DNA from: Clostridia bacterium
Lineage (GTDB): Bacteria; Bacillota; Clostridia; TANB77; CAG-465
Direction of reading: 5' to 3'
Assembly: GCA_028684095.1 (NCBI GenBank)
Contig: JAQUGQ010000001.1
Coordinates: 67,817-131,816 of the forward strand
Length of the DNA: 64,000 nt
The translations under genes were made by a program, and so were the position numbers. Shown piece after piece: positions 18,549-37,080 of this stretch. A model generated the notes under the pieces. It worked only from the letters and a program-made list of their open reading frames with translations, was not told where the DNA came from and did not search any database. The first letter of the stretch is position 1; every line of letters begins with the position of its first letter.

Positions 18549-21500
18549 TTATTCAAAATCATTTGCAGCCCTATTATCTAAATCAAATAATACTACTGAA
18601 CCCCTAATCTCTCTATATCGACTATTATCTATTTCCCACATACCCTTTTCTAACTGATATCTTAATTTCTTGTTAGGATTTGATATATCAAAATTCATAA
18701 ATCCTTCATAATCCCATTGTGAAGAATCAACTGGACTACCTGCAGCTCTATTTTGTTGACTATATGAAATACTTCTTGTACTAGGAGGATTAGTTATTGT
18801 ATCTTTACAAACTATCTTAAATATAACACCAATATATCCATCTTTACAAGGATTATTAATATCTCCGCCATTAGCTACTGCTATTGTTGAATTAGGTAAT
18901 TTAAATTCACCATACCAAGATTGTATAAATGAGGAATTATTCGTACCCATAGACTTATTAGTTAACTTTATTATACTAGATACATTAAGTGGTTCTAGCT
19001 TAGTAGACATCATTGTATTATCATCTGTATAAATACTATTTCTTAAATATCTATATCCATCATTTGGTTTATAATATATTGTATACCCACTTGAACTAAA
19101 ATTTTTGTAACTACCATTAGCATTTTTAAAATATAATTTTAAATTTGAGGGTGGTATAAATGTCTTACCATCTTTTGAAATATAGTAATATGATGGTGTT
19201 ATTTCAACCGTTCTTGAACCATTTGAATTATTTGAATCCATAAATCCTGTTGTTTTCAAATCAAAACTTATTCTATATCCCATTTTTGGTGCATTTATAT
19301 ATTTAGTATTTAAATTTTTGTACGGTCCAAGTGGTATTATTCTTTTAGGAATTGTTCCTAAATCATTATTTGTTTCCATTTCATTAAGATTTGGATTATA
19401 TAGATTCCATTTTTTAATTCCCGAATAGTATATAATTCCTGTAGGTTTATTTACATTTCCACTTACAGAAGTTTTAAATATATCTTTAAATTCCAAATCT
19501 GTACAATCTGTTACCGCAAAGTCAAATATCCTTCCTACGTTATATGTATTTATAATATAATATGCAAGATGATTCGCATCACCTACTATATCTGTTCTTG
19601 TTAATAAATTTTTTTGATTCTGTACAGTTCCGCTATTAGTCACAATTTCACGATTATCCATAAATCTAGTTTCTGACATTTTAGCACTCTTATAATAATT
19701 ATCTAAAAGCTGTGTACTATTTATAGCAACTGCTTCTATTCTAATTCTATTTGTAAGTTGTTCAACTGTTCCAGAACCAAAACTATCTGTTGTCTTTCCA
19801 CTAAATGTAGTAGTACTTCCATTTTTATATATAGGAGTATCTGCAGCTAATTTTTTTTCTACACCATTTTCAGTATACAATACATCAAAACTAAATATGT
19901 AATAAAATCCTTTTACAAAACTTGTTGTAGATACATTACTATAACTTGCAACACTACTTCCGGTCATAATAGGTGTAATATTGAAAATCGCATTTTTTTG
20001 TAAGATAGATGAGTTACTATTATTTTCAACTGAATGATTTACTATTACAGGTGTTGATAATTCAAATGTAGCAAATCTCATAGGTGTTAATACATTTACT
20101 TTATTTACATCATTATCTCTATATATTTTACTCTGATCAGCAAAATCTTCTTGTATTACATCCTTGTTTGTATTAAGTTGATATGTTGCATCTGTAGATG
20201 TAAACACATTTGTACCAACATTATATTTAGAATCAGTAACTAAAGTATAAATTATTTTACCAGTTAACTCTCTTATACCATTCTCTCTAATTGTTGGTAC
20301 TGTTTGATATCCACCACTAAAATCTGCTTGTGTTGTTAATTTTGTAGTTGGTGGTGTCATAAAACTCCCCAAATTAGATGTATAACTTATATTTGTACCT
20401 GGAACATTAGTTCCGGTTTTTGTTGAATTTAACTCTCTAGTTGTATTTGATTGACTATTTATATGTTCTGACCAATCTTTATAATTACGTTGCAACATAC
20501 CATTATCCCATAGGTTTGATAAATTTGGCATTCCATCTAATTGTATAAAATCATTATCATATTTATAATTTATACTAAGATTTTCATGATTAGCTGCCGC
20601 TTGAGCAGTTACTGCATTTAAAGCCGAATCTGCTGCATCTTCTGCATCAGATTCCCCAGAATCTGGCGAACTACTAGATCTATATACATTAGATAAACTA
20701 TATGATTTATCTGGAAATGTTACTGTTAATGTTTTATTTATTTTACCACTACTATTATTAAATTTTGATTCATATGAAGAACTTGGATTAATTATGTACA
20801 TTCCTCCCCCAAATAATGTTCCTCCAATATTACTATTATTATCATAAACTTCTACTTTTGAAATTTTATACATTTTAAAATTAACTATTTTATACCATAC
20901 ATGTTTATATGGCACTGTATAGGTAAAAGATTTTGATGTACTGGAACTACCGGTACGAGGATAATATTTACACGAAGATGTACAACTTGTTGTAGTAACA
21001 CCATTAGTAGTAGATGATGAATCATGATGCTCAAATTCCCAATATCTCCAACTATATGGTTGAGTTATTGATATATCTGCACTAATATTTCCAGTCTCTT
21101 CCATTCTTTCATATCTTAATGCCCTTACAACATATGGATATGCACCATTAACATATGGCCTTAACTCTTTGCCAGCTGGTATAAAGTCAAGTGTAGGGCC
21201 TGAACTTGAATTATAGTATGGTGTACCTGATTGTGTATTTATAAATTCTAACCTACCTATAATTTGTATATTTGGTAATCTAGTTGCAGGTGGTGGTGGT
21301 GGTTCTTTGCTATAAACCAAATTTATAACTATAACATCATCCACATTATTCTCATTAATACCAAATGTTGTTGGATCTATATTCCAAACATATTTCAGAC
21401 CAAAATTAAAATTATTTTCAGCAGCATTTAAATCAGGACCTCTTGCTACTACTCCACGCACAAATGTATAAGTATTATTATCACCAGTTACTTTCGTTTT

Positions 21501-22527
21501 ACTTGATTTTCTAACAGATATTTTTTCAGAACCTTCTATTGTATAATGCTCTTGATAATTTAACCTTGGTTCACTATTTAACCTGGTAGTTCCTGCAGGA
21601 ATTACCATATTTAATTCACTGTTTTCAAATCCAGCTAATACATTTCCATCTTCATCCACATGATTTATATATATTTCTCTTTTTGCGCTAACAACGGGTA
21701 TTTGAAGAATGTTGTCATATAAATTTGCAGCTGAAGCTCCTGGTTTTGCAGGACTTTGAGAATATGGCAACCAAGTTTCACGAACAGTAAATCCTCTTTG
21801 ATCACCATACCAATATCCAATTGTCTCTTGAAAAAAATCCCAAGCTGTATTCATATGATATCCATCAATTCTTTCATCTGTAGTATTAACTCCATTTGAA
21901 AATCTTACAAGATTATTAGTTCCATTCAACCCATATGTATTTATTATTTCAGCAATTGCACTAGCAGTAATTTCATAAATATCAATTCTTACACCATTAG
22001 CAGTTACCTTCCAACATAAAGTATTAATTTTATCAGAATTAATACCTTTATCCATTTGCAAATAATTTCCTGTATCATCAACTTGATTTCTTGGTATATT
22101 TACTGGATTACTTGTAAATCCAGTAAAATCATCAGTACCAATTGCTATAGGAACAGAATTAGTATCGTAATACACATTATTATTTGTACCACTTTCTACA
22201 AATCCATAGTTATATATAGAAAATACTTTATCCATAGGTGCAAATATATAATTATATGTCTCAAACGTTCTATCAGTTCCGCTTGTACTTGCATCTGATG
22301 CATCAGAAAGTACCCATCCATCATATTTATTTGTAGCAGGATCATTATATTTTGCTATAGAGCCGCGGAGAAGCTTGAACCATCTGTGTTATTACAGCAG
22401 CATAGCCAGTTCCATTCAAACTAAAATCTTGGCATTGATATACTAAACCATATCCATATACCTTTATGGCATTGATAATTATTGCAAGTATAAATAATGT
22501 TTTAAATATTTTTTTCATTATATTCAT
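18549..22527 (-). CDS. giant secreted protein of the filament locus (candidate tip adhesin), interrupted by a +1 frame break at CGG 22365-22363
   Basis: The ORF-track pieces are 22345-22527 (MNIMKKIFKTLFILAIIINAIKVYG..., a signal peptide whose ATG overlaps the TGA of the upstream gene) and 18549-22235 (1228 aa, no signal peptide, no SD before its ATG). The 18549 frame is open upstream to 22388. Skipping C 22365 joins ...VQASP to GSIAKYNDPATNKYDGWVLSDAS... The protein also has a PPPPP linker near residue 310 of the large piece. Confidence 0.7.
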
Positions 22528-35866: not shown

Positions 35867-36970
35867 TTATTGAGCTGTAGTTCCCAATAATTGTTTTCTT
35901 ACACTTTGTTGTTCAGATATTGATGTTTGAGCACCACTTACAACATTAGCAATTTTTTCTTCATTTGCTACTTCATATTGTTTATTTAAATTTTCTATGT
36001 TATCTCTCGCTTCTTGGCTCAATTTATTTGTAGCTTCTTTTGAAATATTTATATTACCTCTCATAGCTGCATTAACTTTATCATTTGGTTGATAAGTTGT
36101 AACAGTTTTTGAAGTTGAAGCTGTTAAATTGTTGTATTTTATTATAAAGTTTAACACTTTATCTACATATGCATTGCTTTGTACTGCCGTAGTTGTTTCA
36201 CCTTCTGTAACTTTATCAGTTGATGGTTCAGTTGTGTTTTTATCTATTCCTGCTAAAGTTGCAAGTTCAGGTAACTCTAATTTTATTAATTCTATTAATG
36301 CACCTTCAACTGGATCAATTTCATCATTTGTAAATTTAACTTGCGAATCAGAATCTGCATAAATAGTTGCATATAATTTAGTTCCTTTATTTAAATAAGA
36401 ATCTACCATAGCACTATTTAATATTAATCTTTCAGCTTCTTTTAGGCTAAACCACATTGTTTGACCAGATATCTTGTTTACTTGTTTTGCAGCTAGTACT
36501 ATATAATCTGTACCATTAGAAAACATTATTCTAATATCAACAAAATCTCCTTCAACTAAATCACTCGGCATTAAAATAGCATTTATCTCTTGTTCTCTTG
36601 TATCAACATCTATTATTTTATCTGTTAACATATTATCAATTATTGATGTATATGCAGCAATATTGTATTTAGCAATTTTACCCACAGCTGTCGATGTATC
36701 CAAAATTGCACCAGTTGGAATTGTATCTAGACGAACTCTTACCATAGTTAACATCTCGGCACTAATAGTTTGCCCTTGTACAACATCTTTATTTACAAAA
36801 CATACTTCTTTTGTGAAATTTTGGTTATATTTTACATTAGTACCCGCTTCATAACTCTTAATTGTAACTATACTCCACCATAATGTTATACCTATTCCAA
36901 CTATACCCACTGCAGCTCCAATTGCTATTCCTGTGTATAGTTTCTTTCTTATTTGACTCATTCCAATCAT
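35867..36970 (-). CDS. CpaB/RcpC-like (SAF domain) pilus assembly protein
   Basis: An N-terminal TM (IAIGAAVGIVGIGITLWWSIV) is followed by a SAF-like segment 'KDVVQGQTISAEMLTMVRVRLDTIPTGAI'. It is the first gene of the cluster. The start is set at ATG 36970 (GGAGG SD). Confidence 0.6.
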   Translation of the reverse strand: MIGMSQIRKKLYTGIAIGAAVGIVGIGITLWWSIVTIKSYEAGTNVKYNQNFTKEVCFVNKDVVQGQTISAEMLTMVRVRLDTIPTGAILDTSTAVGKIAKYNIAAYTSIIDNMLTDKIIDVDTREQEINAILMPSDLVEGDFVDIRIMFSNGTDYIVLAAKQVNKISGQTMWFSLKEAERLILNSAMVDSYLNKGTKLYATIYADSDSQVKFTNDEIDPVEGALIELIKLELPELATLAGIDKNTTEPSTDKVTEGETTTAVQSNAYVDKVLNFIIKYNNLTASTSKTVTTYQPNDKVNAAMRGNINISKEATNKLSQEARDNIENLNKQYEVANEEKIANVVSGAQTSISEQQSVRKQLLGTTAQ

Positions 36971-37080
36971 ATTTATAACCTCCAACATTTTTTAAAAATT
37001 CACTAATATAATATTATCACAAACAATTTTAAAAAGCAATAAACAAATTACTTTTTTATCAATTTAGTATCTTTTTTCTA

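Follow-up and report, generated by a model that had tools for sequence, protein, structure and literature searches.

According to Denise et al. (2019, PMC6668835), Tad pili (type IVc) originate from an archaeal system that had two platform genes, and homologs of TadZ occur in archaea. For some Clostridia, including C. kluyveri, C. cellulolyticum, C. bolteae and others, tad-like loci without prepilin motifs were described as 'No Flp_2' loci (Imam et al. 2011, PMC3244431). Here, a gene array of about 18.5 kb was analyzed, which is located in a chromosomal piece of 64,000 nt (designated the window in the following; GC content about 27%) from a Clostridia metagenome-assembled genome (MAG; assembly GCA_028684095.1, contig JAQUGQ010000001.1, positions 67,817 to 131,816). 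With a probability of roughly 0.55, this array encodes a type IV filament machine that forms a deep and separate offshoot of the Tad branch. As far as can be judged from sequences, it most likely represents a real, widespread and hitherto uncharacterised variant of the Tad-branch type IV filaments, which builds an adhesive pilus. This reading is carried by the relationship of the ATPase, a pilin-like structural model, the paralogy of several small proteins, and the synteny and distribution of the genes. The core idea of a preliminary description of this DNA, namely a Tad-side type IV filament locus that differs from existing descriptions of Tad, Com or type IVa pilus systems, was supported by the separate ATPase family and by the pilin model with its paralogs. 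The part names TadB, TadC, TadE and a second TadZ, which had been used in that description, found no support by the tools applied.

The array consists of 16 open reading frames (ORFs) of at least 60 aa, which all lie on the minus strand between positions 36988 and 18549 and are numbered g1 to g16 in the direction of transcription. After joining three frameshifts 13 genes remain, and the intergenic gaps mostly amount to 3–150 nt. A scan of one genome per species with the ATPase yielded 362 matching stretches, 80 of which were compared with the present locus (81 loci together; labels such as L002 or L064 refer to loci used for comparison). The 80 chromosomal loci all stem from MAGs of uncultured Clostridia, including Clostridium sp. 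CAG:465 and CAG:1219, and the samples, where their source is stated, came mostly from the gut (human, rabbit, ruminant). Order and strand of the genes are kept in these 80 species genomes, in agreement with the co-directional and tightly packed array reported previously. The genes g1 to g6 were found in 80–81 of the 81 loci and g7 to g13 in 51–75; the lower numbers are mostly due to fast divergence and early contig ends.

Families were searched with Pfam in 43 of the 44 ORFs of the window with at least 150 aa (all but an antisense ORF within g14), with NCBIfam in g2, g3 and g5 to g16 except g12 and g15, and with PHROGs in g7 to g14 and g16. Within the locus, only the SAF domain of g1 showed an above-threshold Pfam match, and no credible Pfam or, where scanned, NCBIfam family was obtained for g2, g3 and g5 to g16. 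PHROGs matches were absent for the nine distal proteins, and a phage or tailocin origin of the locus was rejected on this ground.

Tad/Flp systems, especially those of monoderms (Bifidobacterium breve Tad; Cellulosimicrobium pCPRO01), share several properties with the locus. The closest relatives of the ATPase are CpaF/TadA, the operon starts with the gene for a SAF/CpaB-type protein, small cytoplasmic proteins take the TadZ position, a polytopic membrane protein directly follows the ATPase, and helix-anchored small proteins and a very large distal protein come next. This order (SAF, two cytoplasmic, ATPase, polytopic, helix-anchored and giant proteins) is the same as in the canonical monoderm Tad locus on the Cellulosimicrobium plasmid. 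A secretin was not found by Pfam in the scanned window ORFs, as stated before, and its absence is expected for a monoderm.

The gene g4 (32402..34294) encodes a secretion ATPase of 630 aa from the CpaF/TadA branch. When the single sequence was compared with the PDB, CpaF of Caulobacter was the closest match (E 1.7e-7 over residues 284–551, which span the N2 domain and the catalytic domain). With a profile built from 15 members of the family, CpaF was matched at E 3.7e-12, followed by VirB11 at E 3.3e-3, and no archaeal FlaI/GspE, PilB or PilT chain was retrieved from the PDB with this profile at E 0.01. The Walker A motif is GEQGCGKTT, and Walker B and the His box are also found in the alignment with CpaF. 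A transmembrane (TM) helix was located at residues 5–23, and a family-specific N-terminal region comprises about 280 aa. This agrees with the preliminary description as regards the N-terminal TM helix and the relationship to CpaF, the nearest solved relative. This helix is also present in the homolog on pBsph and absent in those on pTHECO01 and the C. botulinum plasmid.

The ATPase differs from those of Tad systems in its identity of only about 26% to canonical CpaF (residues 268–543), in the additional N-terminal region with the TM helix, and in a Pfam T2SSE score of 15.8 bits, which lies under the cut-off of 24.9. Against NCBIfam TIGR03819 (TadA family), 22.6 bits were reached at a cut-off of 373; the top NCBIfam secretion-ATPase match was 'TadA family conjugal transfer-associated ATPase'. 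More than 7,500 relatives occur in the database. The best 120 of them share at least 76% identity at a length of about 630 aa, and in some sources they carry the name 'pilus assembly protein CpaF'. Identities across the chromosomal loci of the 80 species range from 60 to 92%. In a plasmid collection, full-length relatives were 37–59% identical, and a next tier was 22–27% identical, with the match confined to the C-terminal part (about 275 residues in the canonical CpaF of Rhizobium and as many as about 360 on two Clostridium plasmids). Judged by these comparisons, g4 is a genuine secretion ATPase and stands, within the superfamily, on the side of CpaF, yet it belongs to a discrete family of its own; by the curated thresholds, this is a sister family to CpaF/TadA and g4 is not a member of the latter. 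According to the identity tiers and the profile and hhalign searches, neither the ATPase nor the putative platform protein falls inside a characterised Tad family, so that the clustering which the preliminary description had named as a refutation did not occur.

The first gene, g1 (35867..36970), encodes a membrane-anchored SAF-domain protein similar to CpaB/RcpC with 367 aa from a conserved MIGMSQ start. The SAF domain was detected well by Pfam (E 2.8e-7; 31.4 bits at a cut-off of 21), and the designation as a CpaB-like SAF protein can be kept. The NCBIfam models pilus_cpaB (E 4.4e-8, SAF part) and flgA_cterm (E 3.6e-9) matched under their cut-offs, and no match was obtained in the Foldseek and PDB profile searches. 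One TM helix is present (residues 23–41 of the 373-aa ORF), the gene occurs in 80 of the 81 loci, and homologs on plasmids are annotated as 'SAF domain-containing protein'.

At the position of TadZ, two cytoplasmic proteins are encoded by g2 (35140..35853; 237 aa) and g3 (34321..35136; 271 aa), each present in 80 of the 81 loci. The profile of the g2 family weakly matched MinD (4v02; E 1.2e-3) across the P-loop and Walker B, and the residues G8, K12, D34 and D94 are invariant; g2 is thus a candidate for a degenerate MinD/ParA-like protein. For g3, there was no Pfam, NCBIfam or PDB match and no detectable relationship to g2; its homolog in T. composti is annotated as ParA, yet it has no Pfam match. 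In hhalign comparisons with CpaE, E-values of 0.047 (g2) and 0.0049 (g3) were obtained at probabilities of at most 7% for both (7% for g3), and no chain named TadZ was returned when the PDB was searched with both profiles. Of two ParA/MinD-like proteins proposed previously, one is therefore weakly supported and the other, which occupies the second TadZ position, is not, so that a duplication of TadZ finds no support.

Directly after the ATPase, a polytopic membrane protein is encoded by g5 (31690..32397, N-terminal half) and g6 (30339..31592, C-terminal half), which form a single ORF of about 685 aa in 77 of the 81 loci. The TM segments of the fused protein (1–19, 102–148 and 266–324, then 392–410, 496–524 and 656–674) parallel those of TadB followed by TadC. 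From this topology and from the position, we infer a role as the platform. For this family, 882 close homologs were retrieved, none of which has a name and almost all of which are about 685 aa long. When 1.84 billion proteins were searched with its profile, 1,010 clusters (50% identity) were obtained, none of which carries a Pfam family, and the best 150 are nearly all 620–700 aa long. Tad systems have TadB and TadC with one T2SSF domain each, whereas one gene of about 685 aa without detectable T2SSF is found here.

The platform gene is split in the present genome at positions 31690..31698 (GAA TTA CGG TGA). The underlying insertion of 1 nt is common to L064 and L065 (around 12595–12610), which are MAGs from other projects, and in L002 the gene is split as well, at another place. 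Over the 102 nt past the insertion, 14–15 nucleotide changes were counted toward L064 and L065 versus one amino acid change in the frame of g6, which indicates that the downstream frame is still translated. Readthrough is probably achieved by a (programmed) +1 frameshift at the rare CGG codon beside the stop codon, and the site is regarded as a candidate for +1 recoding.

The candidate for the major pilin is g7 (29710..30279; 189 aa). Its N-terminus, MDNAQKAIMIGVGLFITIIVIAAVM, is nearly invariant in 65 loci, this near-invariance extends over the N-terminal 25 residues, the remainder is 30–70% identical, and the length in relatives ranges from 124 to 216 aa. An AlphaFold model calculated with 112 homologs was confident (predicted local distance difference test, pLDDT, 85.8; predicted template modelling score, pTM, 0.73). 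It consists of a helix of 56 residues (2–57) and a beta domain with eight strands and two short helices, and this modelled arrangement is the long-helix-plus-head shape typical of type IV pilins and archaellins. Flp, in comparison, has about 50–80 aa with the G/XXXXEY site and the Flp motif, and no globular beta domain as in the pilins of 124–216 aa described here. The leader of g7 is MDNAQKA and the residue at position +5 is Val or Gly, never Glu, which agrees with the previous statement that the pilin is about three times the size of Flp and lacks the G/XXXXEY site. Matches to the His1 capsid on the pilin N-terminus were below threshold, concerned the hydrophobic helix only and were taken as compositional.

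Behind the pilin gene, a perfect hairpin with a stem of 21 bp was located at 29596..29645 (−31.9 kcal/mol; z = −6.3), exactly as the preliminary description had reported it for the 189-aa candidate. One or two long hairpins occur at the same spot in relatives (median longest stem 18.5 bp). In the loci L019, L026, L027, L037 and L060, a tandem second major pilin gene with the N-terminus MDNAQKAIMIGVG lies just past the first copy. The strong, conserved hairpin and the tandem pilin copies fit a highly expressed major subunit.

Three further proteins share the pilin-like N-terminus, as proposed before and as confirmed by hhalign. The products of g8 (28973..29404; 143 aa) and g10 (27746..28153; 135 aa) are paralogs of the pilin over the full length (probabilities versus the g7 family 98.4% with E 5e-15 and 99.5% with E 5e-23, respectively). 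In g11 (26705..27736; 343 aa; 133–715 aa in relatives), the N-terminal module of about 85–125 aa is related to g7 and g10 (84–90%), and Ig/PKD-like repeats follow in the C-terminal part. The pilin-like part of the proposed 'PKD-repeat minor pilins' was thus confirmed for g11; for the PKD repeats, a K319L-like PKD was matched weakly at Pfam E 0.02 at best. The N-terminus of g8 reads M-D-E-x-R-A and is followed by the hydrophobic helix. In g7, g8, g10 and the plasmid pilins, [KR]-A stands directly before this helix and there is no acidic residue at +5. Judged by eye, we take the pilin leader to be archaeal-looking (class III signal peptide) and not Flp-like or PilA-like, and it may be cleaved.

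The remaining proteins are anchored or secreted. The product of g9 (28188..28943; 75 of 81 loci) is anchored N-terminally, possesses an FE(K/R)xDDxSY motif and carries a C-terminal extension of variable length (164–645 aa for the whole protein in relatives); homologs occur on all three plasmids examined. A paralog, g12 (25384..26614), is split here by an insertion of 1 nt near 26459–26465 and forms one ORF in 58 of 69 loci. Among relatives, the C-terminal extensions of g9, g11 and g12 have lengths between about 130 and about 1,270 aa; in the present locus they contain PKD-like repeats, which were matched weakly (E 0.02). The N-terminally anchored g13 protein (24074..25273; 399 aa; 67 of 81 loci) has homologs on pTHECO01 (E 1e-34) and pBsph and gave no family match with Pfam, NCBIfam or hhalign. 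These three proteins had been called TadE-like. No Pfam match to TadE was found in g9, g12 and g13 at E <=0.1, and the families of g9 and g13 reached a probability below 1% when aligned by hhalign with six TadE sequences; this assignment was consequently dropped.

As described previously, g14 (22524..23924; 466 aa) encodes a single-pass membrane protein with one TM helix (residues 44–62). It was seen in 40 of the 81 loci, a count limited by flank length, and on Bacillales plasmids its position is taken by an SLH-domain protein. The last gene encodes a large secreted protein of about 1,325 aa (18549..22527), which is divided by a frameshift near 22345–22380 into g15, a 60-aa ORF with the signal peptide, and g16, an ORF of 1,228 aa. 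The secreted product of about 1,290 aa in the preliminary description was confirmed in kind but not as a single ORF. An intact equivalent with 1,360 aa occurs in the relative L085 (14970–19052). The C-terminal 340 aa of g16 match the protein encoded at the end of the plasmid loci (E 2e-12), for which Pfam assigned DUF5704.

Taken together, the parts of a type IV filament system are represented here by an ATPase matched by sequence, by a pilin architecture supported by model and paralogy, and by a platform indicated by position and topology. The system is, on the present comparisons, not filed as Tad, with negative results for TadB/TadC, Flp and TadE and a positive one for CpaB/SAF; TadV, TadE/F/G and TadD, which belong to Tad systems, were not recognisable here. 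The 'No Flp_2' loci of Clostridia (Imam et al. 2011, PMC3244431) are likewise Tad-like without a recognisable prepilin motif, but homologs of tadC, tadV and tadZ were reported there which are unrecognisable here; this distinction is made by description only. Archaeal type IV pili (Epd-like) and the archaellum (FlaI/FlaJ) resemble the system in the short leader ending with K-A without Glu at +5 (by eye), in the pilin with a long helix and a globular beta domain, and in the platform, which is a single polypeptide of two halves. In contrast to them, the profile of the ATPase found bacterial CpaF but no archaeal chain at E 0.01, SAF/CpaB is an accessory of bacterial Tad, and no archaeal pilin or archaellin family was matched in Pfam or NCBIfam. 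In the literature on DUF5704, on pili of pBsph, on Tad-like conjugation in Firmicutes and on new classes of type IV filaments, no description of the system was found.

The module is also found on plasmids. The platform protein was detected on 35 plasmids of Firmicutes, which have sizes of 100–540 kb except for one record of 61 kb (partial match) and stem from Paenibacillus, Lysinibacillus, Clostridium botulinum, C. argentinense, C. beijerinckii, Butyrivibrio, Thermobacillus, Cohnella and others; all 35 are typed as 'non-mobilizable'. On pTHECO01, pBsph and pINGR16-02E1 of C. botulinum, the order is SAF protein, two small proteins, ATPase, membrane protein of about 680 aa, helix-anchored small proteins, a g9-like and a g13-like protein. 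On both Bacillales plasmids, the locus then ends with an SLH protein and a DUF5704 protein of about 1,000–1,200 aa. On pTHECO01 and pBsph, homologs of g1 to g6, g9/g12, g13 and the C-terminus of g16 keep this order, and fewer were matched by homology on pINGR16-02E1 (g1, g4, g6 and g9/g12). Genes for a cell-wall hydrolase (C. botulinum) or for GGDEF and HD proteins lie within or beside the plasmid modules. The GGDEF/HD genes flank the modules at L082:31938–33728 and at L084:28324–29364 and 5997–6557, and none lies near the chromosomal locus; by analogy with other pilus systems, they hint at a control by cyclic di-GMP.

On the two module plasmids whose flanks were read in this respect (pTHECO01 and the C. 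botulinum plasmid), the module adjoins ordinary conjugation genes. This recalls the thin (type IVb) pilus of the IncI plasmids R64/TP114, which is likewise a type IV pilus module beside a conjugative type IV secretion system (T4SS). The thin pilus belongs to another branch of the superfamily, however, with the PilQ ATPase, the PilR platform and PilS/PilV pilins with classical leaders, and no homology beyond the ATPase superfamily was found. It is plausible by this analogy that the module has an accessory mating or adhesion role on plasmids. A role as the sole mating apparatus on plasmids with coupling proteins was rejected, as VirB4-type T4SS genes are present on pTHECO01 and the C. botulinum plasmid, and judging from this gene content the module does not replace the T4SS. 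The 'tip' conjugation system of pXO16 was also discarded: none of the 35 carriers is a Bacillus plasmid, and a review of it gave no shared component.

Several results weigh against the proposed offshoot of the Tad branch. The platform family, represented by 38 members (26 homologs, g5, g6 and 10 distant representatives), was negative for T2SSF in Pfam, and its profile did not match the PDB. In hhalign comparisons with eight canonical TadB/TadC proteins from four annotated Tad loci, the probability was at most 1.4%, whereas the control of TadB versus TadC gave 97.9%. The reach of the profile over 1,010 clusters also argues that the protein is not detectably T2SSF, as far more matches would be expected otherwise. 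An all-helical AlphaFold model with only close homologs as input had a low confidence (pLDDT 64), and the Foldseek search with it found nothing and was uninformative. The two 'TadB- and TadC-like platform proteins' of the preliminary description hence turned out to be two halves of one gene without a T2SSF signal in either. None of 112 members of the g7 family matched a pilin family in Pfam, Flp_Fap included, and neither the model nor the profile of g7 significantly matched solved pilins or archaellins in Foldseek or the PDB. For g3, g9, g12, g13 and g14, no family could be assigned with the scans applied to each of them. As already reported, a prepilin peptidase was absent among the scanned window ORFs of at least 150 aa, and it was also absent from the annotated plasmid flanks read, so that a processing of the pilins is no more than presumed. 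Experimental work on any family member was not found in the literature. The lack of a pilin, Flp, TadE or T2SSF family in g5 to g16, of a peptidase and of a structural match for the pilin model would also suit a set of signal-anchored surface proteins, whose ATPase and membrane protein form another export or envelope complex and not a filament machine. This is very unlikely, as CpaF-type ATPases are known from filament systems only (Denise et al. 2019, PMC6668835), the 56-residue N-terminal helix in the model of g7 is typical of type IV pilins and archaellins, and several hallmarks of pilin genes are present, namely an N-terminus that is invariant ahead of a variable globular part, a row of four paralogs and an attenuator-like hairpin. 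Rather doubtful is the more far-reaching possibility of an unrecognised class between archaeal pili and bacterial Tad, which would combine a fused platform, globular pilins and an archaeal-style leader without Glu5 with bacterial CpaB and ParA-like accessories, and which, serving in mating or adhesion, would have spread on conjugative megaplasmids of Firmicutes and then been fixed as a chromosomal organelle in a large clade of uncultured gut Clostridia.

The filament might also serve mainly as an accessory of DNA transfer, either as a mating-pair or aggregation pilus with conjugation proteins like the thin pilus of R64/TP114 or as a DNA-uptake pilus, and the chromosomal copy of gut Clostridia would be a domesticated remnant together with a VirD4-like protein. 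This protein (12467–14983, plus strand; 838 aa; Pfam T4SS-DNA_transf E 1e-8; NCBIfam conju_CD1115 E 5.8e-10) is a homolog of VirD4/TraG-like coupling proteins, and its gene lies 3.5 kb beyond g16. Most of 31 metagenome loci conserve it with an identity of 62–86%, the seven plasmids that match it best are Clostridium plasmids which all carry the module, and the top NCBIfam match of g4 is named 'conjugal transfer-associated'. On pTHECO01, a coupling protein, two replication-relaxation proteins and a Tcp-type T4SS are encoded at about 8–17 kb from the module; on pFWSKR40E1 of C. botulinum, the module comes directly after genes in the same orientation that encode a coupling protein, a DUF87 (VirB4-like) ATPase and a C39 peptidase; and on six Paenibacillus, two Lysinibacillus and one Cytobacillus plasmid a coupling protein occurs 8–14 kb from the module (8–11 kb in the Paenibacillaceae). 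The ordinary VirB4-type T4SS genes of the plasmids, which beside the module on pTHECO01 comprise a VirB4-like ATPase, TcpE and a glucosaminidase, nevertheless account for the coupling proteins without a pilus, and the link between coupling protein and module is confounded by shared Clostridium ancestry. Moreover, no coupling protein was found within the 32 kb of pBsph that were read, and neither the locus nor the rest of the window encodes a VirB4 or a relaxase beside the VirD4-like protein at 12467–14983, according to the Pfam and NCBIfam scans of the window proteins. In more distant chromosomal relatives, the VirD4-like gene is located beside pth-rplU-rpmA-obg and not beside the pilus locus, and we regard a main role in DNA transfer as rather unlikely. 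A decaying pseudogene cluster without present function in this genome, whatever the family does elsewhere, is quite unlikely. Frameshifts in 3 of 13 genes (platform, g12 and g15/g16) would fit such a decay, as SecA, Obg and SNF2 are intact in the same window, and the g15/g16 split is common to the close relative L110. The platform frameshift is common to three independent MAGs, however, and the sequence behind it is under strong purifying selection and hence read through; the g12 insertion was seen in the present MAG only (absent in L002, L064 and L065) and could be an assembly error; and the other genes are intact and 40–100% identical to relatives. The frameshifts in g12 and g15/g16 may stem from errors of the assembly, from decay of the genes or from phase variation; with them, the machine may be partly impaired here, which counts against the main reading as well.

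If the locus encodes a Tad-branch filament machine, the following mode of action can be envisaged. The g4 protein, whose homology to CpaF was demonstrated above, would act as a hexameric ATPase that is tethered to the membrane by its own TM helix and docks on the platform of g5 and g6, and it would drive the g7 pilins from the bilayer into a helical fibre. The proteins of g8, g10 and g11 and the anchored ones of g9, g12 and g13, several of which have variable Ig/PKD-like extensions, might prime or cap this fibre. The SAF protein g1 could form a periplasm-like collar through the wall, as CpaB/RcpC, and g2 and g3 may replace TadZ as cytoplasmic organisers. The products of g14 and g15/g16 would be wall-associated or distal adhesive parts. 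Most likely, the fibre would mediate attachment to surfaces or other cells in the gut, and the plasmid module probably helps to keep donor and recipient cells together.

Both sides of the locus are flanked by housekeeping genes. Directly upstream, a D-Ala-D-Ala carboxypeptidase of the penicillin-binding protein 5 type is encoded (37258..38520, minus strand; Pfam Peptidase_S11 E 7e-63), and this gene adjoins the module in 67 of the 81 loci, the most distant group among them. Its product may remodel peptidoglycan for the pilus, or the arrangement may simply be a case of conserved synteny. Downstream, a bidirectional terminator-like hairpin of 14 bp (18446..18477) closes the operon, and the flank encodes a DUF1980 protein, SecA, the VirD4-like protein, Pth, the ribosomal proteins L21 and L27, a beta-CASP nuclease, tryptophanyl-/tyrosyl-tRNA synthetase (TrpRS/TyrRS), Obg and a SigK-type sigma factor. 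The VirD4-like gene is found next to pth-rplU-rpmA(-obg) wherever the upstream flank suffices. It had been considered as a physical part of the locus, and this was rejected, since it is adjacent in the closest relatives only and elsewhere stays with rplU-rpmA-obg. The sigma factor (5605–6300, minus strand) reached 275 bits at an NCBIfam SigK subfamily cut-off of 252, and the organism probably sporulates, which makes the earlier designation as a spore-former plausible.

A protein of 589 aa without family match is encoded at 367–2136 (minus strand), and a homolog (E 6e-12) lies directly upstream of the SAF gene on pINGR16-02E1 of C. botulinum (L084:14569–15201). It may be a dispersed component of the pilus system. 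Apart from the locus, two overlapping ORFs (172 and 201 aa) were noticed at 54785–55877 (minus strand), the second with an AbiEii toxin domain, which are followed by a DUF6577 protein and may represent a frameshifted AbiE-type toxin-antitoxin or defence pair.

Screens which require platform and pilin profiles likely miss this system, as only the SAF domain passes a Pfam threshold. If the intermediate-class reading were true, the system would record a stage of the archaea-to-bacteria transfer behind Tad and reveal a Gram-positive conjugative pilus. Of interest are the interplay of a fused platform, unrecognisable by sequence, with a CpaF-like motor, the processing of pilins that lack the Flp site, and a possible use of type IV pili by conjugative plasmids of Gram-positive bacteria. 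Cultured hosts of the plasmids exist, which makes the system experimentally tractable; candidates are Lysinibacillus sphaericus C3-41 (pBsph), Paenibacillus polymyxa M1 and Butyrivibrio proteoclasticus B316. In the poorly known gut organisms themselves, the conservation of g4 at 60–92% points to an important surface organelle.

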